A DNA stretch of 64,000 bases from Bordetella parapertussis. Lineage in GTDB: Bacteria > Pseudomonadota > Gammaproteobacteria > Burkholderiales > SG8-39. Shown in pieces: positions 1,817 through 30,892 of the stretch (the first letter of the stretch is position 1; each line of letters opens with the position of its first letter). The DNA lies in NCBI GenBank assembly GCA_945861875.1, contig CAMAWC010000005.1:684-64683 (forward strand), given 5' to 3'. The notes under the pieces are model-generated. The model worked only from the letters and a program-made list of their open reading frames with translations. It made no database searches and had not been told where the DNA came from. A program made the position numbers and the translations under genes.

Positions 1817-2572
1817 CTACGGATTTTGAGGGGTTCCGGCGAGGCTGCCGAGAATCCTTGCCCCTGTCTCGCGCAACATCTGCAACAACCTCCCCACATC
1901 GGAGGTGGCAAACCGCTGTCGGGTAAGAATCAATCCCAACGCCGCGTGGGTTTCGTGCTCGCGACTCGACAAAGGCACGGCAATCCCCACCAACCCGGGA
2001 TCGAGTTCGCCGTGGCTGATGCAATGGCCGGCGCTGCGTATGGTTTTGAGGTTGGCGAGTAAGGTGTCCCAGTCGGCGGCGAAGGCTTCGGCCGCGGCCT
2101 CCGCTGCAGGTGCGGCGTGGATGCGGCGCAATTGGGCGCGCGTCACCGAGGCGAGCAGCATCTTGGAGAGCATGCCGCGATAAAGCGGCATGCTGCGGCC
2201 GCGGCCGTAGGTGGCGCTGATGCCCTCGAGGCCGTGTTCCTGGTGCACGGTGAGGATGCGATCGCCGTAGATGCTGCCCAGCACCACGTCGCAACCGGTC
2301 TGGTCGGCGAGCGCGCGCATCGGTGCGCTGCCGGCAAGCAGCAAGGGGTCGGTGAGGCGGATCTGGTGGTCGAGTTCGATGATGCGCGTGCCCAGCCAAT
2401 AGGTACCGCCCGAGCCGCGACGCAGCAAGCCGGCCGCGGCAAGTTCGCGCACATAGCGATAGGCGGTGGGCCGCGTATAGCCGAGTTTTTCGGCTATGGC
2501 TTCGGCGGTCCAGGCCGGCGCCGTCCCGGTAAAGAGGTCGAGCACGACGAGCATGCGCCTCAGGCTGGACAT
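1817..2572 (-). CDS. IclR family transcriptional regulator
   Basis: 251 aa. N-terminal wHTH (VLDLFTGTAPAWTAEAIAEKLGYTRPTAYRYVRELAAAGLL) followed by an IclR-type effector domain. Confidence 0.85.
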   Translation of the reverse strand: MSSLRRMLVVLDLFTGTAPAWTAEAIAEKLGYTRPTAYRYVRELAAAGLLRRGSGGTYWLGTRIIELDHQIRLTDPLLLAGSAPMRALADQTGCDVVLGSIYGDRILTVHQEHGLEGISATYGRGRSMPLYRGMLSKMLLASVTRAQLRRIHAAPAAEAAAEAFAADWDTLLANLKTIRSAGHCISHGELDPGLVGIAVPLSSREHETHAALGLILTRQRFATSDVGRLLQMLRETGARILGSLAGTPQNP

Positions 2573-4918: not shown

Positions 4919-5932
4919 ATGATGAAAACACTAAAACTAAGGGCCGTGGTGTCGATCCTGACGCTGTTCGCAGCTTCGATGGCGTTTGCGCAGCCGGTAA
5001 CGCTGAAATTCGCCAGCTTCGAGCCGGCGCAGGCGACTTTCACCTCGAAGGTGTTCGCGACCTGGGCGGAGGATGTCAGCAAAGCCTCCAATGGCACACT
5101 GAAAATAGAGATTTTTGCCGGTGGCACGCTGGGGCGCAATCCGCTGCAGCAGTTCAAGCTGGTACAGGACGGCGTGGCCGACATTGCCTGGTCGATCGCC
5201 GGCTATACACCGGGGCGCTTCGATGACACCGAGGTCGCCGAGCTGCCTTTCCTGATCAACAATTCCTACGAGGGCTCGATGGTCCTGACGCGACTTGCCG
5301 CCCGAAACGAGCTGGTCGGGTTCGCCGATCTGAAACTCCTCCTCATCGGTTCGGTGCCACCGGTAAGCCTTCACGGCACCTTCCCGATCCGCACGCTCGC
5401 GGACTTGAAGGGCAAGCGCATGCGTGCCGCCAGTTCGCTGACCGGCAAGGTCGTTACCGCAATGGGCGGGGTACCGGTGCTCATTGGCGCGCCACAGACC
5501 ACGGAGGCGATCTCCAAGGGCGTGGTCGACGGTACGCTGGCCGAGTGGAATTTTGTCAACACCTTCAAGGTCTATGAGGTCGCGTTCAACCACATGGCAT
5601 TGCCGCTTGGCGGCACCGCGATCATGGTCTCGATGCTCAAGTCGCGCTACGACGCCCTGCCACCGGCCGCGCGCGCCGCGATCGACAAGTACAGCGGCGA
5701 GGCCTTTGCCAAACGTTTCGCCGCGGTTGGCGACGCCACCATCACCGAGGTACCCGCCGCCCTCGCCAAACGCGGCAAGAACATCATCGTGCAACCGGAT
5801 GCGGCCACGCGCGAGAGCTTCCGCAAGGCGGTGCAGCCGGTTGCGGACGATTGGCGCAAGGAAAAGCCGCGCAACGAGCGGGTCTATCAGGCGTTTGTCG
5901 CCGAACTCGAGCGCGTGCGCGCGGGCAGGTAA
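4919..5932 (+). CDS. dctP: TRAP transporter substrate-binding protein (DctP family)
   Basis: Track ORF 4853..5932 trimmed to the ATG after AGGAGG (4912-4917). The start could equally be 4922. Signal peptide MMKTLKLRAVVSILTLFAASMAFA, then DctP-like sequence. Confidence 0.85.
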   Translation: MMKTLKLRAVVSILTLFAASMAFAQPVTLKFASFEPAQATFTSKVFATWAEDVSKASNGTLKIEIFAGGTLGRNPLQQFKLVQDGVADIAWSIAGYTPGRFDDTEVAELPFLINNSYEGSMVLTRLAARNELVGFADLKLLLIGSVPPVSLHGTFPIRTLADLKGKRMRAASSLTGKVVTAMGGVPVLIGAPQTTEAISKGVVDGTLAEWNFVNTFKVYEVAFNHMALPLGGTAIMVSMLKSRYDALPPAARAAIDKYSGEAFAKRFAAVGDATITEVPAALAKRGKNIIVQPDAATRESFRKAVQPVADDWRKEKPRNERVYQAFVAELERVRAGR

Positions 5933-6465: not shown

Positions 6466-7776
6466 ATGGCCATGGACCCGGTGACGGTGATATTGCTCGG
6501 CCTCGCCGGCATGTTCGCGCTGATTCTCCTGCACGTGCCGCTCGGCGTGGCGATGGGCATCGCCGGCGTCATTGGATTCGGCGTCCTTGCAAGCTTCAAG
6601 CCGGCGTTTACGCTGCTCGCCTCCGAAACCGCCAGCGTGTTTTCCAGCTCCGATCTGGCAACCATACCGCTGTTCATCATGATGGGCGGGTTCGCCAGCG
6701 CGGCGGGCCTGTCCGAAGACTTGTACCGCATGGCTTACGCACTGGTGGGCCACCGGCGCGGCGGACTGGCGATGGCCACCATCGGCGGCTGCGCCGGATT
6801 TGGCGCCGTGTGCGGCTCATCCATTGCCACCACCGCCACCTTCGGACGCGTGGCGCTCCCGCCGATGCTCGCGCGCGGTTACTCGCCGGGCTTCGCCAGC
6901 GGGACGGTCGCCGCCGGCGGCACGCTCGGGATACTGGTGCCGCCCTCGATCATCATGGTGATCTACGCGGTGCTGGCCGAACAGCTGATCATCACGCTCT
7001 ACGTCGCGGCAATCGTGCCCTCCATACTTGCCATCGGGCTGCACTTTGCGGCCATTGCCGCCTATACGCGGTTGCGTCCCGGTGATGCGCCGGCCGGAGA
7101 ACGCCTGCCCTGGACCGAGCGCTTTCGCGAAATCGGGCGCGGCTGGGCGGTGATGCTGCTCATCCTGATCGTGCTGGGCGGTATTTCGTTCGGCGTGTTT
7201 ACGGCGCTCGAAGGCGCCGCGGTTGGCGCCGCGCTGGCTTTCTTTTTCGCGCTGCTGCGCCGCTCGCTCAACGCCAAGACCTTCAAGCGCACCTTGATCG
7301 ATGTGGCAAGCACCACCGCGATGATTTACGTGATCATCATCGGTGCGTCGCTGTTCGGCTATTTCGTCGCCATTTCGCACGCCCCGGAAGCCATGATCAA
7401 AGCCATCACCGGGACCGGGCTGTCGATTCCGGTCATCCTGTTCCTGTTGATGCTGATGTACCTGGTGCTGGGCGCGGTCTTCGACGAGGTTGCGGCGATG
7501 GTGATCACCCTGCCCTTTGTGCTGCCGCTTATCATGAGCTGGGGCTTCGACCCGGTGTGGTGGGGCATCATCAATGTGGTGATCATTGAACTGGGCATGC
7601 TCATTCCGCCGATCGGCATGAACGTTTTCGTGATCCACGGCCTCGCCCCCCAGGTGCCGCTCACCGCGATCTACCGCGGCGTGACCCCCTATATCGTCTC
7701 GAACCTGTTGCGCCTGGCGATTCTGCTTTCGTTTCCGCTACTGTGCCTGTGGCTGCCGGCTTATTTGAAGGGGTAG
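6466..7776 (+). CDS. dctM: TRAP transporter large permease (DctM family)
   Basis: Track ORF 6361..7776 trimmed to the ATG just after the dctQ stop (MAMDPVTVILLGLAGMFALILL...). Polytopic membrane protein of typical DctM length. Confidence 0.85.
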   Translation: MAMDPVTVILLGLAGMFALILLHVPLGVAMGIAGVIGFGVLASFKPAFTLLASETASVFSSSDLATIPLFIMMGGFASAAGLSEDLYRMAYALVGHRRGGLAMATIGGCAGFGAVCGSSIATTATFGRVALPPMLARGYSPGFASGTVAAGGTLGILVPPSIIMVIYAVLAEQLIITLYVAAIVPSILAIGLHFAAIAAYTRLRPGDAPAGERLPWTERFREIGRGWAVMLLILIVLGGISFGVFTALEGAAVGAALAFFFALLRRSLNAKTFKRTLIDVASTTAMIYVIIIGASLFGYFVAISHAPEAMIKAITGTGLSIPVILFLLMLMYLVLGAVFDEVAAMVITLPFVLPLIMSWGFDPVWWGIINVVIIELGMLIPPIGMNVFVIHGLAPQVPLTAIYRGVTPYIVSNLLRLAILLSFPLLCLWLPAYLKG

Positions 7777-26486: not shown

Positions 26487-26993
26487 CTAATCCACCGTGA
26501 GCAACAAGGCCGTCAGGCCGATACCCACGCCGGTCGGCACGCCGATGCGTTCGAGCACCCCCGGACGGCTGCCGGCGACGACGGCAACCGGAACATTCAC
26601 CAGGCGCACCAGTTCGTTGGTAAAGGAGCCGGCCAGAAGGCGCATCAGGCTGGTCCGGCGTGCGGTGCCGACGACGATCTGGTTGATGCCATTGTCAGCG
26701 GCGTATTGCGCGGCAGCCGACGAGGGCTCGCCGGCCATCACCGTAGAACGATAGTTGACACCCGCAGCGCGCAGCAGGCCCTCGGCTTCGCCAAGACGCC
26801 GGCATCCGGTTTCCCGATGCGCATCGGCGAGCGAGCGGCGCGACAGGAATCTGCCGGCATGCCGGTTCATTCGCGGCTGGACGTTGAGCAGGTGCACCTG
26901 CGTGTCGCCGCGCAGCGCAGCCAGGCCGAGGGTGTGCCGCACGGCGAGCAGTGCATTTTCGGAGCCATCTACGGGAACAAGAATATTGAACAT
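26487..26993 (-). CDS. Universal stress protein (UspA family)
   Basis: 168 aa: MFNILVPVDGSENALLAV... and ...IVVGTARRTS.... Confidence 0.8.
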   Translation of the reverse strand: MFNILVPVDGSENALLAVRHTLGLAALRGDTQVHLLNVQPRMNRHAGRFLSRRSLADAHRETGCRRLGEAEGLLRAAGVNYRSTVMAGEPSSAAAQYAADNGINQIVVGTARRTSLMRLLAGSFTNELVRLVNVPVAVVAGSRPGVLERIGVPTGVGIGLTALLLTVD

Positions 26994-27005: not shown

Positions 27006-27692
27006 TCAGTTTGACTGGGGGGCAAGGGTGGAACGGCGGTTGCGCAGGTAACCAAGACCGAGCACACCGCCGATAACGGCCGCATACAGGATCCAGTGCA
27101 GGGTGGCGTGAAGCTCGAAGTATTCCTTGATCAGCGGCTCGCTCGACACCATCTTGGCGGCGGTCCAGGCGAGCACAGCGGCGCCGATGTAAATGATCGA
27201 CGGGAAGCGCTCCACCCAGTGCAGTATCAATTGGCTGCCCCAGATGACGATCGGAATGCTGATCAGCAGGCCCAGAACCACCAGCAGGAAGTTGCCGTGG
27301 GCGGCACCGGCCACCGCAAGGACATTGTCCAGGCCCATCACCGCGTCGGCAATGACGATGGTCTTCATCGCGCTCCAGAAACTATGCGCCGGCGTGACGT
27401 GGGCATCTTCATTGTCGTTGGGGCACAACAGTTTGTAGGCGATCCAGACCAGCAGCAACCCGCCGACCAGCAGCAGGCCGGGAATCTTGAGCAGCCAGAC
27501 GACCACGACGGTCATGGTGGTGCGCACCACAATGGCGCCAACGGTTCCCCACATGATGGCTTTGCGCTGCAAGTGCCTGGGTACGCCGCGCGCGGCCAGC
27601 GCAATGACTATGGCATTGTCGCCTGCGAGCACCAGGTCGATAATGACAATGGCCAGCAGCGCGGAAAAAAACTCGGGTGAAAACAGTTCCAT
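27006..27692 (-). CDS. TerC/YjbE family integral membrane protein
   Basis: ATG at 27692 (the track start 27695 is a GTG one codon upstream). MELFSPEFFSALLAIVIIDLVLAGDNAIVIAL... is a hallmark TerC motif. Confidence 0.88.
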   Translation of the reverse strand: MELFSPEFFSALLAIVIIDLVLAGDNAIVIALAARGVPRHLQRKAIMWGTVGAIVVRTTMTVVVVWLLKIPGLLLVGGLLLVWIAYKLLCPNDNEDAHVTPAHSFWSAMKTIVIADAVMGLDNVLAVAGAAHGNFLLVVLGLLISIPIVIWGSQLILHWVERFPSIIYIGAAVLAWTAAKMVSSEPLIKEYFELHATLHWILYAAVIGGVLGLGYLRNRRSTLAPQSN

Positions 27693-27743
27693 CACACACT
27701 CCCCTCGCCCGGTTCATGTTTCCATCAGGCAGGGTGGGCGTAT

Positions 27744-27884
27744 CCTTTGCCGGACGGCAAAGGTCTCGCCAGTACCCGGTTCCGTGTCCGGGTATCCACA
27801 CAACCGGGGCCCGTTAGGAACCCGTGATGACGGCGGTGTGGCACACAGCATTGCGGCTGCGCGTGGCTACTCCCCTTTGTAGGG
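27744..27884 (-). promoter_or_regulatory. yybP-ykoY (Mn2+) riboswitch-like leader of the TerC-family gene
   Basis: The minus-strand RNA reads ..cuaCAAAGGGGAGUAGCCacg...GGUUGUGUGGAUACCCGGacacggaaCCGGGUACUGGCGAGACCUUUGCCguccGGCAAAGG.. . The invariant 5' and 3' ends of the motif are present, and the classical downstream gene family follows. Confidence 0.75.
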
Positions 27885-27942
27885 TGCGTCCTATCTGAAC
27901 GCAGACGGATTATCGGCAGCGGGCGCCGCCGACACCAGTGAG

Positions 27943-28207
27943 CAAATGCAATGTCTGTTATTGCGATATGCGATGCCTGTTATTGCTCATTGCAATATCT
28001 GCACTTGCAATATGCGATGCCTGTCATTGCACCACTCAATGTCTTCCATTCGAAACATCCGATGCTTGCTATTGCCCGGTTCAATATCCGTCATTGCAAT
28101 GTGCAATGCCTGTTATTGCCTATGTCAATATCTGCTATTGCAACATGCAATGTTCGTCATTGCCCACCGCAATACCTGCCATTACATGTTGCAATAACAG
28201 CGAACTT
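27943..28207. repeat. 12 tandem 22-bp units (one is 23 bp), consensus nnnnTGCAATryCTGyyATTGC; alternating GCAAT/ATTGC half-sites
   Basis: Hand alignment gives unit starts at 27943, 27965, 27987, 28009, 28031, 28053, 28076, 28098, 28120, 28142, 28164 and 28186. The region is AT-richer than its surroundings. A 22-bp period is not a multiple of 3. Confidence 0.9.
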
Positions 28208-28235
28208 GCCGCCGGACCGCCTCGCGTGCTACAGT
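28206..28235 (+). promoter_or_regulatory. Candidate sigma70 promoter (TTGCCG-N18-TACAGT) for the plus-strand riboswitch-like leader
   Basis: The hexamers sit at the right edge of the 22-bp array, about 30 nt upstream of the aptamer-like sequence. The call is by motif only. Confidence 0.35.
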
Positions 28236-28265
28236 CCGCTGCCTTCCTTAGCGGGAAGGCTCCTC

Positions 28266-28364
28266 CAAAGGGGAGTAGCTTTTAGCAGCCCGTCGTCAAT
28301 ACGAAGCCCCAGGCTTCCGGCGCGGCTGGCAGCCGGAACACCGGTTGCAAGCGAGACCTTTGCC
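28266..28364 (+). promoter_or_regulatory. Second yybP-ykoY (Mn2+) riboswitch-like element
   Basis: CAAAGGGGAGUAGCuuuuagc...CUGGCAGCCGGaacaCCGGUUGCAAGCGAGACCUUUGCC. It has the same invariant ends and the same P1 pairing (CAAAGG/CCUUUG) as the minus-strand copy. Confidence 0.6.
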
Positions 28365-28393
28365 AGAACAAGCAAAGGTCCAGCCATGTGCGA

Positions 28394-28426
28394 GGCCTTT
28401 ACCTGTTTGAGGTAAAGGCTTTTTTG
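28394..28426 (+). terminator. Intrinsic terminator; likely the expression platform of the plus-strand riboswitch
   Basis: GCCTTTACC-tgtttga-GGTAAAGGC is a perfect 9-bp stem, followed by TTTTTTgTTT and located 32 nt before the next ATG. Confidence 0.8.
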
Positions 28427-28457
28427 TTTCATACTCGCAAAACTTTGGAGGTTCCAG

Positions 28458-28802
28458 ATGAGAAACGCAACGCTGCGACGCTACTTTCGCCACGGCATCT
28501 TCACCCAGTTGATGGTGTTTGAGGCGGTGGCCCGCCTTGGCAGCCTGACACGCGCCTCGGAAGAGCTGCACCTTGCACAGCCGACGGTCTCGGTGCAAAT
28601 GAAAAAACTTTCCGAATCGATGGGGGTCAAGCTGCTGCGCATGAGCGGGCGCGGCGTGGAACTCACCGATGCCGGACGCGAGCTGCTCGCCTGCTGCTGG
28701 GAAATCAGCGGGGCCCTTGGCCACCTGGAGGAGAGACTCGCACCATTGCGCCCGGCCAAGGACATCGCCATCCCGATACTCGCCCCCCCGCCGGAAGCCT
28801 GA
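28458..28802 (+). CDS. LysR-type HTH DNA-binding domain plus linker helix only (114 aa); no effector-binding domain
   Basis: GGAGG precedes the ATG by 6 nt. LMVFEAVARLGSLTRASEELHLAQPTVSVQMKKLSESMGVKLLRMSGRGVELTDAGRELL is a canonical LTTR N-terminus. The ORF stops about 20 aa after the linker helix. It could be a truncated remnant. Confidence 0.7.
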   Translation: MRNATLRRYFRHGIFTQLMVFEAVARLGSLTRASEELHLAQPTVSVQMKKLSESMGVKLLRMSGRGVELTDAGRELLACCWEISGALGHLEERLAPLRPAKDIAIPILAPPPEA

Positions 28803-28815
28803 TCGCCGGCGGCGC

Positions 28816-28844
28816 AAAAAAATGCCCGCGCGAGGCGGGCATTT
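28816..28844 (-). terminator. Intrinsic terminator of the convergent DctP-family gene
   Basis: The minus-strand RNA reads UGCCCGC-cucgc-GCGGGCA-UUUUUUU. Confidence 0.75.
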
Positions 28845-28861: not shown

Positions 28862-29869
28862 TTACTTGACTGCCTGAACCTTGTCGTAGACGTCCTTGGG
28901 CCAGGGCAAAGCGCTTCCGTCGGGCAGTTTGCCTTCCTTGTAGTACTTTTGCACCGCCGCGATAAACGGCTTGCGGTCGACCTTGACCACGGTCTTGCCG
29001 CGCTTGGCAAAATCGGTCATCAGGTTCTTCTCGACATTGACGATCTCGGTGGTGGCACGGGTAGCCGCCTCACGATACACATCGACAAATATCTTCTTGT
29101 CCGCGTCAGACAGTTTCGCCCACAGCGGCGCGCCGATGATGGTGAGAAGCGCATCGGTGATATGAGCGGTGATGTTGATATGCGACTGCACTTCATAAAA
29201 CTTTTTCGCATCGATGGTCGGCAGCGGGTTTTCCTGCGCCTCGACCGTCTTGTTCTGCAACGCCAGGTATACCTCGGCAAACGCGATCGGCGTGGGGTTG
29301 GCGCCAACGGCACGTGGGAACAGCGTGTACAGAGGCGCATCGGGCACGCGAATCTTCAGTCCCTTCATGTCCTCGGGTTTGTTTAGCGCCTTGTTTGAGG
29401 TGGTCTGCCGGTCACCGTAATAGGTGATCGCCACCACTTTGTTGCCGCCGCTTGCCTTCTGGTAGCCGTCGGAAATCTCGCCAAACACCGCGCTGGTGGA
29501 GAATTTTTTCCAGTGATCGAAATCACGGAAGATGAAGGGCGCGCCACCAATCGAAATCGGCCCGAAGGTGCGCCCGGCGAAGAGCTGGCCGGTATAAATC
29601 ATGTCCACCGTACCCAGCGTCAGCCCCTGGTTAATGTCGGTTTCCTTGCCCAGCGACGAAGCCGGAAAAACCTCCACGGTGTAGCGGTTGGCGGTACGTT
29701 TGGCGATTTCGCCGGCGGCCCAGACAGCGGCGGTGTGATAGGCCTCGCTGATTTCGTAGACGTGGGCGAACTTGAGCTTGGTCTGCGCCTGTGCGGGTGC
29801 CGCGGCGACCGCAGCCAGTGCCAGCGCGGCCAGCGCAACACGGATACATCCTGAAAAAACGGATTTCAT
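28862..29869 (-). CDS. TRAP-type substrate-binding protein (DctP family), orphan
   Basis: Track ORF trimmed to MKSVFSGCIRVALAALALAAVAAAPAQA (GGAGGAAG Shine-Dalgarno). No adjacent dctQ or dctM. Confidence 0.85.
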   Translation of the reverse strand: MKSVFSGCIRVALAALALAAVAAAPAQAQTKLKFAHVYEISEAYHTAAVWAAGEIAKRTANRYTVEVFPASSLGKETDINQGLTLGTVDMIYTGQLFAGRTFGPISIGGAPFIFRDFDHWKKFSTSAVFGEISDGYQKASGGNKVVAITYYGDRQTTSNKALNKPEDMKGLKIRVPDAPLYTLFPRAVGANPTPIAFAEVYLALQNKTVEAQENPLPTIDAKKFYEVQSHINITAHITDALLTIIGAPLWAKLSDADKKIFVDVYREAATRATTEIVNVEKNLMTDFAKRGKTVVKVDRKPFIAAVQKYYKEGKLPDGSALPWPKDVYDKVQAVK

Positions 29870-29986
29870 TTTCTTCCTCCAGTGATTTTTGCAAACCCCG
29901 TCCGCCCCTGTAAAATCCGGGTCTCCTCGGGTGGCCTGCAAGAATTGCATAGCACCCCGCCAAAGTCAATCAAACGGCTGCCCGAC

Positions 29987-30892
29987 ATGTTGCCCATTCC
30001 CGACAGAGCGCATGACAACCGGCGGCGCGGTGTCCTGCTGATGGTCGGGGCCGCCCTGTGCTGGAGCCTGGGTGGCATCCTGGTGCGCAAGGTCAGCGTC
30101 CCCGACCCATGGGAAATCGTATTCTGGCGGTCATTTTTCATGAGCCTGTTCGTCGCGGCGGTCCTCGGCGCAAGCCACGGGGCGGCGACAATCGGCCGGA
30201 TTCGCGCCGTCGGCATCGGCGGCCTTGTATCCGGGCTGATGTTTGCGACCATGTTCTTTTGCTACATCCTGTCGCTGTCGCGCACCACCGTGGCCAACGT
30301 CGCGGCGCTGTCGGCAATCGCGCCCTTTCTTGTCGCTATTTTCGGCTGGCTGTTCCTCGCCGAGCGCATAGCGCTGCGCACCTGGCTGGCCATTCTCGCC
30401 GCGGTGGCCGGCGTGGTACTGATGTTCGCCGAGGGCATGGACAGCGGCCAGGTTGCGGGAAACCTGCTCGCCCTCGGCATTCCCCTGGGGTTCACCGTGA
30501 ACGTCTACGTGCTGCGGCGCATGCACGCGCGCGTCGACATGATCCCGGCGGTGATGATCGCCGGCATCCTGTCGGCCGCCATCGCCCTGCCCCTCGCCTG
30601 GCCGCTCACCCCGACACTGCCCGACATCGGCATTTTCATGCTGCTGGGCTTTGTCCAACTTGGACTGGGCTGCGTGCTGATGACGCGGGCGACGCGTTAC
30701 CTTTCATCCGGGGAAATCGGCCTGTATGCGCTGCTCGAGCACGTGCTCGCGCCGATCTGGGCATGGATCGGCGTGGGCGAACGGCCGCAGGACCTCGCAC
30801 TCGCCGGCGGCGTCATCGTGATCATTGCGCTAGCTGCAAACGAATGGCTGGACCTGCGCGCCCCACGAAGCGTGGCCGCGCTGAAAAAATAA
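29987..30892 (+). CDS. DMT superfamily (EamA-like) transporter
   Basis: Track ORF trimmed to MLPIPDRAHDNRRRGVLLMVGAALCWSLGG.... About 10 TM segments. Confidence 0.8.
   Translation: MLPIPDRAHDNRRRGVLLMVGAALCWSLGGILVRKVSVPDPWEIVFWRSFFMSLFVAAVLGASHGAATIGRIRAVGIGGLVSGLMFATMFFCYILSLSRTTVANVAALSAIAPFLVAIFGWLFLAERIALRTWLAILAAVAGVVLMFAEGMDSGQVAGNLLALGIPLGFTVNVYVLRRMHARVDMIPAVMIAGILSAAIALPLAWPLTPTLPDIGIFMLLGFVQLGLGCVLMTRATRYLSSGEIGLYALLEHVLAPIWAWIGVGERPQDLALAGGVIVIIALAANEWLDLRAPRSVAALKK

Follow-up and report, generated by a model that had tools for sequence, protein, structure and literature searches.

The locus analysed here lies in a window of 64 kb (the whole stretch of DNA examined, 64,000 nucleotides of contig CAMAWC010000005.1 of Bordetella parapertussis assembly GCA_945861875.1) and comprises a gene for a TerC-family putative Mn2+ exporter and a 114-amino acid (aa) LysR-type open reading frame (ORF), transcribed divergently from an intergenic region of 762 bp where GGGGAGUAGC...GAGACC is found on each strand, facing outwards. 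On sequence and fold both leaders are assigned to the yybP-ykoY (Mn2+) riboswitch class, the LysR-side copy as a variant lacking helix P2. It is fairly probable that Mn2+ acts through the riboswitch on the LysR DNA-binding domain (DBD) and through this protein on the terC promoter, as a feed-forward module. The parts are of known kinds: the riboswitch class, the DBD of a LysR-type transcriptional regulator (LTTR), the T-N11-A operator and the TerC exporter. What appears to be new is the wiring, with a metal riboswitch that would gate the regulator of the class's own canonical target, together with the apparently repeated loss of the sensor domain of the regulator behind the riboswitch. The window lineage adds a second riboswitch in mirror image and a phased operator of twelve copies, both of them new as well.

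The two leaders and their riboswitch class

The TerC-side aptamer (27752..27883, minus strand) is the canonical four-helix form and precedes the TerC gene (27006..27695, minus strand). Its ends are GGGGAGUAGC, the complement of plus-strand positions 27866-27875, and GAGACC, the complement of 27762-27767. The elements recognised are P1.1, L1, P1.2, P2, P3 with L3, and P4, and the fold forms the P2, P3 and P4 hairpins around a four-helix junction. The LysR-side aptamer (28262..28368, plus strand) lacks P2 and has a three-way junction; its P1.1 is formed by 28266-28271 with 28357-28362, L1 is GGGGAGUAG/GAGA and L3 is CGUCAAUAC. The L1 internal loop, with GGGGAGUAG opposite GAGAC between P1.1 and P1.2, was found in both copies, and so was L3 (GUCA...AC), which reads CGUCAAUAC on the plus strand and CGUCAUCAC on the minus strand. 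L1, L3 and a four-way junction are the elements by which the class is described, here complemented with the E. coli alignments of this analysis.

Metagenomic contigs were scanned with a pattern made of the two conserved ends common to eight LysR-side leaders, which returned more than 80 loci (all loci examined carry L numbers below), and a covariance model (R1) was built from an alignment of 77 distinct metagenomic aptamers, the LysR-side copy of the window being included and TerC-side sequences numbering zero. The consensus comprises P1.1, GGGGAGUAG/GAGA (L1), P1.2, a long helix broken by CGUCAAnAC (L3) and a terminal hairpin. Among these 77 homologues 92.4% of the paired cells can pair, against 78.5% after column shuffling and 32-46% with slid partners; compensatory changes were identified in 18 of 26 pairs, and none of 500 shuffles reached the observed value on any of five measures. 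P1.1 covaries (CG/AU/GC; AU/UG/GC), and the helix enclosing L3 has compensatory changes in 8 of its 9 pairs. The L3 core GUCA, which lies outside the search pattern, is invariant or nearly so.

All elements of the initial annotation were recovered at the positions given there or a few bases away, and those parts of its hypothesis that are accessible to sequence analysis were borne out. It had described two divergent Mn-riboswitch-like leaders, and R1 recovers both. The TerC-side copy (27883 to 27752) was detected over its full length with 52.1 bits (E 7.8e-12), P2 being an insertion relative to the model, and the LysR-side copy (28262-28368) with 80.3 bits and all helices intact, a score to be read with the presence of this copy in the training set. 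R1 also detected both validated E. coli riboswitches over their full length directly upstream of alx (55.0 bits, E 1.5e-13) and of mntP (44.0 bits, E 1.2e-10), and gave 0 matches over 592 kb of control DNA from unrelated LysR loci. Both leaders are placed in the class because the model finds the untrained minus-strand copy, alx and mntP, and nothing in the controls. The aptamers that are not followed by a LysR gene precede TerC proteins of the Alx and YjbE types, UPF0016 proteins and P-type ATPases. The minus-strand leader had likewise been said to run into a TerC-family gene, and the product carries PF03741 (172 bits, cut-off 27.8) and TIGR03717 R_switched_YjbE (235.9 bits, cut-off 134.8), which places it in the YjbE subfamily; we take the name of the latter model to refer to the association with yybP-ykoY riboswitches.

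The Rfam search proposed in the initial annotation is uninformative here. Matches do appear when RF00080 is run in the permissive (E-value) mode, with 17.5 bits on the plus strand and 12.9 on the minus strand, but neither reaches the gathering score of 45, and at the gathering threshold there is no RF00080 match in the whole window. Taken by themselves these scores would amount to a refuting outcome named in the initial annotation, but the validated E. coli mntP leader fails as well (41.6 bits), and for that reason the search does not discriminate. The RF00080 model, of 177 positions, leaves the 3' GAGACC half of the E. coli mntP leader (L097, 962-1058) unaligned, and the lack of P2 is part of the reason for the low score of the LysR-side copy. 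Scans with the version of RF00080 used here would miss real members of the class.

The expression platforms of the two leaders differ. On the TerC side (27696..27751, minus strand; fold and sequence) the 3' strand of P1.1 has a pairing partner in GGCAAAGG (complementary to plus-strand 27744-27751); the platform has no U-tract and a Shine-Dalgarno (SD) sequence GGGGAG stands ahead of the start codon, and control is presumably translational or Rho-dependent. On the LysR side GACCUUUGC (28355-28363), the 3' strand of P1.1, pairs in the minimum free energy (MFE) fold with GCAAAGGUC (28372-28380), forming a competing hairpin (28355..28380, plus strand). The same GCAAAGGUC is by reading of the sequence complementary to GGCCUUUAC, the 5' strand of the terminator, and through this pairing it can, in principle, serve as antiterminator. 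The intrinsic terminator between aptamer and LysR start (28392..28429, plus strand), which the initial annotation had called strong, was recovered by terminator scan and MFE fold (z = -6.2) as a 13-bp stem at 28392-28422 with a 5-nt loop, followed by the U-tract TTTTTTGTTT. Since the ligand-free MFE fold contains both the competing hairpin and the terminator, OFF would be the default state, and the LysR leader is read as a putative Mn-ON switch. The three-part design of P1.1, competing segment and terminator recurs with changed sequence in L081, L084, L087 and L156. In loci where an ATG lies 22-26 nt past GAGACC, the SD (GGAGCCGAG) is base-paired to CCUCGGUU, the 3' strand of P1.1, and E. coli mntP is reported to use this mechanism (PMC10197570). 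These pairings support a coupling of the aptamer to the LysR ORF, which would take place by terminator and antiterminator in the window clade and by direct SD sequestration elsewhere.

The P2-less form raises the question of the ligand. With one of the four canonical helices lacking, the specificity of the LysR-side copy could differ, and the signal sensed there might be Ca2+, another divalent cation or alkaline pH, the two arms then integrating two signals; within the class, a Ca2+ response has been reported for S. pneumoniae mgtA and a response to alkaline pH for E. coli alx (PMC11672702, PMC8632737). This is considered improbable. L1 (GGGGAGUAG/GAGAC) is invariant, although it was selected by the search pattern, and the L3 core GUCA is invariant or nearly so without having been selected. 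Furthermore, the P2-less form also precedes genes for Alx, UPF0016 and P-type ATPase proteins, and E. coli alx itself aligns to R1 without a P2 segment.

Other copies of the aptamer were observed in some contigs. Three are present in L123 (128-263, minus strand; 494-615 and 2232-2335, plus strand), as a divergent pair and a third copy, and two each in L161 (676-792, minus; 5038-5158, plus) and L167 (3088-3204, minus; 7455-7575, plus). With two or three aptamers in a few kb in such metagenomic contigs, multi-aptamer Mn loci are not confined to the window lineage. In the window itself R1 has a further weak match at 2142-2235 (plus strand; 14.2 bits, E 0.08) with a degenerate L1 and GAGA missing, which is probably due to chance.

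The short LysR protein and its relatives

The 114-aa ORF (28458..28802, plus strand; SD GGAGG at 28446-28450) encodes a winged helix-turn-helix (HTH) and a linker helix. The only Pfam domain identified was PF00126 HTH_1 (73.3 bits, residues 16-74); the effector-binding domain PF03466 is absent from the protein in the Pfam search. The protein is an incomplete LTTR, a derivative of this family. The AlphaFold model (alignment of 71 sequences, pLDDT 89) has a short N-terminal helix, the winged HTH at residues 14-69, a 27-residue helix at 71-97 with pLDDT above 90 and a tail of low confidence. The protein aligns to CcmR residues 11-100. Structures matched with Foldseek include the CcmR DBD (root-mean-square deviation about 1 A, 45-49% identity) and the DNA-bound CbnR_DBD (5xxp) and BenM_DBD (4iht), with template modelling (TM) scores of 0.86-0.88. 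Given this match to DBD-linker constructs, some of them crystallised on DNA, the natural protein is equivalent in extent to fragments whose dimeric binding to a dyad is established, and the description as a DBD without effector domain in the initial annotation holds. The motif LRRYFRHG at residues 6-13 (R7 R8 Y9 R11 H12 G13) was observed to be invariant in 71 short homologues, and the full-length forms share it. This motif is a signature of the riboswitch-gated LTTR subfamily, and a short additional helix ahead of the winged HTH is predicted for it.

Homologues of the 114-aa protein number in the hundreds, many of them of 110-127 aa. The ratio of nonsynonymous to synonymous substitution rates (dN/dS) is 0.05-0.27 among the short ORFs, and 0.07-0.17 for the window ORF against those of L081 and L084, so the short ORFs are maintained by purifying selection. 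Eight lineages retrieved through the protein (57-88% identity to that of the window) were represented by long contigs, and in all eight the short LysR gene is divergent from TerC and preceded by the aptamer, with different neighbours on the far side: EamA, alcohol dehydrogenase, a hydrolase, TctC, DsbB and an ankyrin protein.

A LysR-family ORF lies directly behind the aptamer in 48 of 80 loci retrieved with the aptamer pattern, a sample enriched by the origin of the pattern in LysR-side leaders, so that the proportion is no estimate for all Mn riboswitches. TerC is divergent in 44 of these 48 loci; of the remaining four, two are cut off by the end of the contig. In most of them the TerC start lies 106-207 bp from the aptamer and R1 finds no second, TerC-side aptamer; the conserved core is therefore a riboswitch leading into LysR beside a riboswitch-free terC. 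The TerC-side aptamer is restricted to the sub-lineage of the window (the window, L081, L084, L090, L138, L156 and, weakly, L087). The initial annotation had named no known case of a Mn riboswitch wired to the DBD of a transcription factor; the aptamer-LysR-TerC arrangement is a widespread metagenomic family and not unique to this locus. In the comparison of synteny only the second riboswitch and the 12-unit array turned out to be specific to the sub-lineage, while the riboswitch leading into LysR beside TerC recurs. Among species-representative genomes, the short LysR query retrieved only CbbR-like LTTRs, those complete and examined being of 299-347 aa and without the aptamer, so the module was not met in a cultured relative. 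In L145 and L149 the TerC gene is upstream in the same orientation, and no TerC adjoins the 122-aa LysR of L124, which has the aptamer, the dyad and a terminator-like hairpin upstream; in view of these exceptions a divergent terC is no obligate partner of the regulator.

The length of the protein was counted over 40 complete riboswitch-gated LysR ORFs, 29 of which are truncated. The longest class comprises 11 ORFs of 313-327 aa with PF03466 complete. About one third of this domain remains in two ORFs of 253 aa and in 11 of 217-227 aa; the six ORFs of 147-169 aa have one third (169 aa) or none (150 aa), and the ten of 110-127 aa have none. By Pfam, then, PF03466 is full in the forms of 313-318 aa, about one third in those of 169-253 aa and lacking in those of 112-150 aa. 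HTH and linker are strongly conserved in every class. Three types of truncation were identified: a stop that closely follows the linker (seen in the window clade and in the 112-aa proteins of cluster 11), an in-frame deletion fusing the linker to the C-terminal 'LAELLLREA' tail (L095 and L131) and partial internal deletions (253 and 221 aa). The differing end-points point to separate events, and short and full-length proteins share one close cluster, the short forms being polyphyletic, so the effector domain was lost several times. The ancestral form was a full-length LTTR behind the riboswitch, divergent from a riboswitch-free terC. Such repeated loss behind a riboswitch fits a move of ligand sensing to the RNA.

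The proteins of 150-253 aa were also considered as decaying remnants. This was rejected, since the residual segments of the intermediate forms have dN/dS values of 0.14-0.44, like intact effector domains, which indicates stable architectures and no ongoing decay.

The initial annotation had named full-length relatives as an outcome that would make the locus a deletion scar. In such a reading the 114-aa ORF would be the pseudogene of a once complete LysR, and the leader on the plus strand a functionless leftover. Full-length proteins do occur among the 40 complete ORFs (11, of 313-327 aa), but they sit behind the same riboswitch, and the scar does not follow from them because the short forms persist in unrelated contexts, have several origins and are under selection. 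They are kept in at least eight lineages with unrelated flanking genes at dN/dS 0.05-0.27; the SD and start codon are intact and tied to the expression platform; no remnants of the effector domain lie downstream, the next gene starting or ending within 26-60 bp; and the aptamer, at 80 bits, has all its helices intact. A scar is hardly credible on these data.

A dominant-negative role has also to be considered, in which the short LysR would mainly compete for operators or form mixed dimers, by way of its linker helix, with a full-length LTTR encoded elsewhere. The closest homologues in reference genomes are indeed full-length CbbR/CcmR-like regulators, the linker helix is by established knowledge the dimer interface of LTTRs, and L124 lacks an adjacent TerC. 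Within the 64-kb window, however, the dyad is found essentially only in the protein's own intergenic region, the linkage to TerC is near-universal, and the nearest relatives are the riboswitch-gated full-length forms (60-65% identity) and not CbbR (42-57%), all of which makes this role very improbable.

The operator array and the proposed wiring of the module

The operator array (27938..28202) occupies the space between the putative terC -10 and the putative LysR -35. Tandem Repeats Finder reports a period of 22 with 9.6 copies (27942-28152) or a period of 44 with 5.4 copies (27947-28183), and a register drawn by hand resolves twelve 22-bp units, a single one being extended to 23 bp, as had been described. 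Each unit is ATTGC-N5-GC(A/G)AT and 7 bp of spacer in which CTG occurs. Unit positions 1-5 (ATTGC), 11-15 (GC(A/G)AT) and the CTG of the spacer have a high information content, the central 5 bp a low one. With a half-site about every 11 bp, the half-sites lie on the same face of the helix. When one mismatch at most is allowed, the window has 10 copies of the dyad ATTGC-N5-GCAAT, 9 of them inside the array; the chance expectation is 4.1 +/- 1.8, and none of 100 shuffles reached 10. Two other identities of the array were tried. A reading of mir-5882/mir-548-type microRNA or long non-coding RNA was discarded, the scores being far below threshold and reflecting the palindromic repeats, and a hypervariable, variable-number tandem repeat was rejected since length and register are constant in eleven contigs of two lineages.

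Nearly all loci contain a perfect or near-perfect 15-bp T-N11-A palindrome (e.g. ATCGCGAATCGCGAT, ATTGCGAATCGCAAT and CATTGCGATTTGCAATG) ending 2-11 bp upstream of the LysR -35, and in about 50 of them a single strong dyad stands at the position equivalent to the array. A weaker second dyad stands on the terC side, and the whole is the classic divergent-promoter layout of LTTRs. The recognition helix and the half-site change together: PTVS-T-Q is found with ATCGCG half-sites (36 C to 6 T at the variable base) and PTVS-L/V/I-Q with ATTGC (34 T to 0 C), a correlation that is partly phylogenetic, and the switch is also seen inside one closely related clade. The window protein, with Val at the variable position, has ATTGC dyads. 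The array units are T-N11-A dyads of the operator type of the relatives, which favours the earlier description of the array as a putative LysR-type operator.

Alongside the weaker dyad a conserved TerC-proximal element, GAAGAAAAATGA(A/T), was observed in nearly all loci (27933-27952 in the window; near 3690 in L092; L115 and L099). Its form in the window clade is CCA(A/G)TGA(G/A)NAA..GCAATG, and GCGATG-N4-6-CATCGC is the weaker dyad that it adjoins. The element may belong to the terC promoter or constitute a further site for the LTTR.

The twelvefold array is apparently a lineage-specific operator amplification maintained by selection. Its length and register are constant over eleven independent contigs from two lineages, whose proteins are 99% and 93% identical and whose aptamer cores are spaced by 394 and 393 bp with the register unchanged. 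It could instead be a neutral minisatellite, produced by replication slippage of the operator and of no gain over the single ancestral site: the array is confined to the sub-lineage of the window, one or two dyads suffice in relatives of 81-88% protein identity, and the 44-bp super-period indicates amplification by duplication. A neutral repeat, however, is expected to drift in copy number and in sequence alike, and here length and register stayed fixed at 93% protein identity despite many substitutions, which avoid the half-sites (10-12 of 12 identical in orthologous units) and hit the centres (4-9 of 12). A neutral origin is thus held to be rather unlikely.

Both promoters were assigned by eye and by conservation. 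The putative terC promoter has a -10 GATAAT (27909..27914, minus strand), kept as GATAAT or CATAAT in L081, L084 and L090. The putative promoter of the short LysR (28207..28236, plus strand) comprises a -35 TTGCCG (28207-28212), an 18-bp spacer and a -10 TACAGT (28231-28236), and TTGCNN-N17/18-TAnnnT was identified at a constant distance from the aptamer in the eight lineages first examined (8 of 8). In loci with a single riboswitch, a search for the terC promoter from the conserved GAAAAATGA element gave no convincing -10/-35.

The sequence of events proposed for the module is as follows. At low Mn2+ the 3' strand of P1.1 would pair with 28372-28380, the terminator at 28392-28422 would form and little LysR mRNA would be finished. 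At high Mn2+ the stabilised aptamer would retain the 3' strand in P1.1, and the freed segment would pair with the 5' strand of the terminator, allowing read-through. The 114-aa DBD with its dimerising linker is expected, from homology, structure prediction and co-variation, to bind ATTGC-N5-GCAAT dyads as dimers, its activity being set solely by its concentration in the lack of an effector domain. The bound protein would activate the divergent terC-usp promoter, the least certain step, and would probably modulate its own. In the window lineage the exporter would then need Mn2+ twice, for initiation through LysR and in the terC leader, forming a coherent feed-forward loop, and the 12 phased dyads would allow multi-site, probably cooperative occupancy over the about 270 bp between the two promoters. 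A stronger version, possible but on balance doubtful, is that the RNA aptamer replaced the ligand-binding domain throughout an LTTR subfamily, this domain being repeatedly shed as dispensable after the riboswitch had come to gate synthesis of the regulator, and that in the window lineage cooperative binding of the DBD along the 12-dyad track converts a graded riboswitch output into a sharp two-promoter switch for Mn2+ export.

The sign of the regulation could be the opposite. At high Mn2+ the short LysR might cover the array as a repressor or roadblock and turn off terC, its own promoter or both, with negative autoregulation or an incoherent feed-forward pulse as the result in place of activation; this alternative is rather unlikely. 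Established knowledge of LTTRs is that a DBD-only protein lacks the tetramer geometry of activation; in addition, twelve sites across the whole inter-promoter space resemble a repressive nucleoprotein tract, and a dyad abutting the LysR -35 is the usual arrangement of LTTR autorepression. Conversely, terC is riboswitch-free in most loci and the exporter would fall precisely at high Mn2+, which makes no physiological sense; the strong dyad with a weaker terC-proximal dyad in these loci is the layout of an activator-type LTTR, and the DBD of GcvA alone has been resolved in contact with the transcription initiation complex (8y6u). Activation is judged likelier than repression because terC has no other Mn input in most relatives and because the two-site layout is activator-like.

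Some points count against the feed-forward module as a whole, in addition to the silence of RF00080 at its gathering threshold, the P2-less aptamer, the enriched sample of loci, the partly phylogenetic helix and half-site correlation and the lack of TerC beside the L124 regulator. The 13-bp terminator is far more stable at equilibrium than the 7-8-bp antiterminator, and read-through must for that reason be kinetic. A strict sigma-70 consensus scan did not call either putative promoter. A DBD-only LTTR unable to form the activation tetramer could equally repress.

Known systems and neighbouring features

The riboswitches of this class are Mn-ON and control exporters (PMC8632737, PMC10197570). 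The window shares with the switches of E. coli mntP and alx, B. subtilis ykoY and L. lactis yoaB the aptamer class, in L1, L3, the helices and the cross-detection by R1, and probably also the Mn-ON response by competition for the 3' strand of P1.1. They have in common, too, an exporter of the TerC family as target, Alx and YkoY being TerC proteins (PMC8632737, PMC10197570). Unlike in those systems, one copy in the window precedes the gene of a DNA-binding regulator and not of a membrane transporter, the LysR-side copy is P2-less and two copies stand back to back over one operator region. The reviews and surveys of yybP-ykoY consulted here list transporters and membrane proteins as cargo and no link to LysR or to another transcription factor, although the gene lists of the founding papers may hold one. 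A similar logic is seen in the dual control of E. coli mntP, by MntR/Fur at the promoter and by the riboswitch in the leader, where the exporter has a double Mn input as proposed here (PMC8632737); there the protein arm, MntR, senses Mn2+ itself, whereas the protein arm of the window has no sensor and its signal is proposed to come from the second riboswitch.

With CbnR, CbbR/CcmR and BenM the window protein shares the winged HTH and linker, the T-N11-A dyad by its own promoter and the divergent target gene. Unlike these regulators it has no PF03466, a riboswitch lies upstream and the operator is present in 12 phased copies; without the effector domain there would be no sensing of a co-inducer and presumably no tetramer. 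The constructs CbnR_DBD (5xxp), BenM_DBD (4iht/4ihs) and the N-terminal domain of CysB (5z4z) have the same extent as the 114-aa protein (target-normalised TM 0.80-0.88). Such DBD-linker constructs are laboratory truncations, several of them crystallised on dyads, whereas the form in the window is natural and under purifying selection.

Second-messenger riboswitches, such as those for cyclic di-GMP that precede tfoY (Vibrio) or cmrRST (C. difficile), set the level of a transcription regulator and constitute a cascade from RNA to protein, with a ligand class and regulator families different from those of the window module. These regulators are not known to adjoin or control the canonical direct target of their own riboswitch class, or to have lost a sensor domain.

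The usual description of riboswitches is that of direct, one-step controllers of transport or biosynthesis genes, and the surveys of the Mn2+ class consulted here list membrane proteins only. If the reading given here is true, a path from Mn2+ riboswitch to transcription factor to the usual target of the class adds an RNA-to-protein relay to metal homeostasis. The series of LysR lengths behind one aptamer is a rare natural record of an RNA sensor apparently making a protein sensor redundant, and the short forms would be naturally minimal LTTR DNA-binding proteins with a seemingly clear operator code (Thr with ATCGCG, Leu/Val with ATTGC). The module can be tested with short RNAs, the 114-aa protein and 270 bp of DNA and, if the reading is true, it is a compact Mn-responsive two-promoter cassette of potential reuse in synthetic biology.

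On the terC side the neighbour is a universal stress protein (Usp) gene (26487..26993, minus strand; PF00582, 85 bits), 12 bp 3' of TerC, and the two genes are probably cotranscribed in the window. The TerC-Usp order was also identified in L081, L084, L090 and L094. ORFs of 83-154 aa cross the array (27938-28415, plus strand), and a 113-aa gene without Pfam match is called over the equivalent region in L081 and L083 (4572-4913, minus strand); as real genes these ORFs were rejected, being most likely artefacts of a repetitive, stop-poor sequence.

Beyond the short LysR, a hairpin with flanking A- and T-runs (28816..28844, sequence reading) lies between the convergent LysR and DctP genes; it is likely a bidirectional terminator, although the terminator scan did not call it. 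It is followed by the DctP-family gene, for the solute-binding protein of a tripartite ATP-independent periplasmic (TRAP) transporter (28862-29950, minus strand), and by an EamA gene (29882-30892, plus strand). The DctP gene is also present in the 99%-identical relatives and absent from L081, where EamA comes directly after LysR, and from this absence it looks like a recent insertion beside the module.

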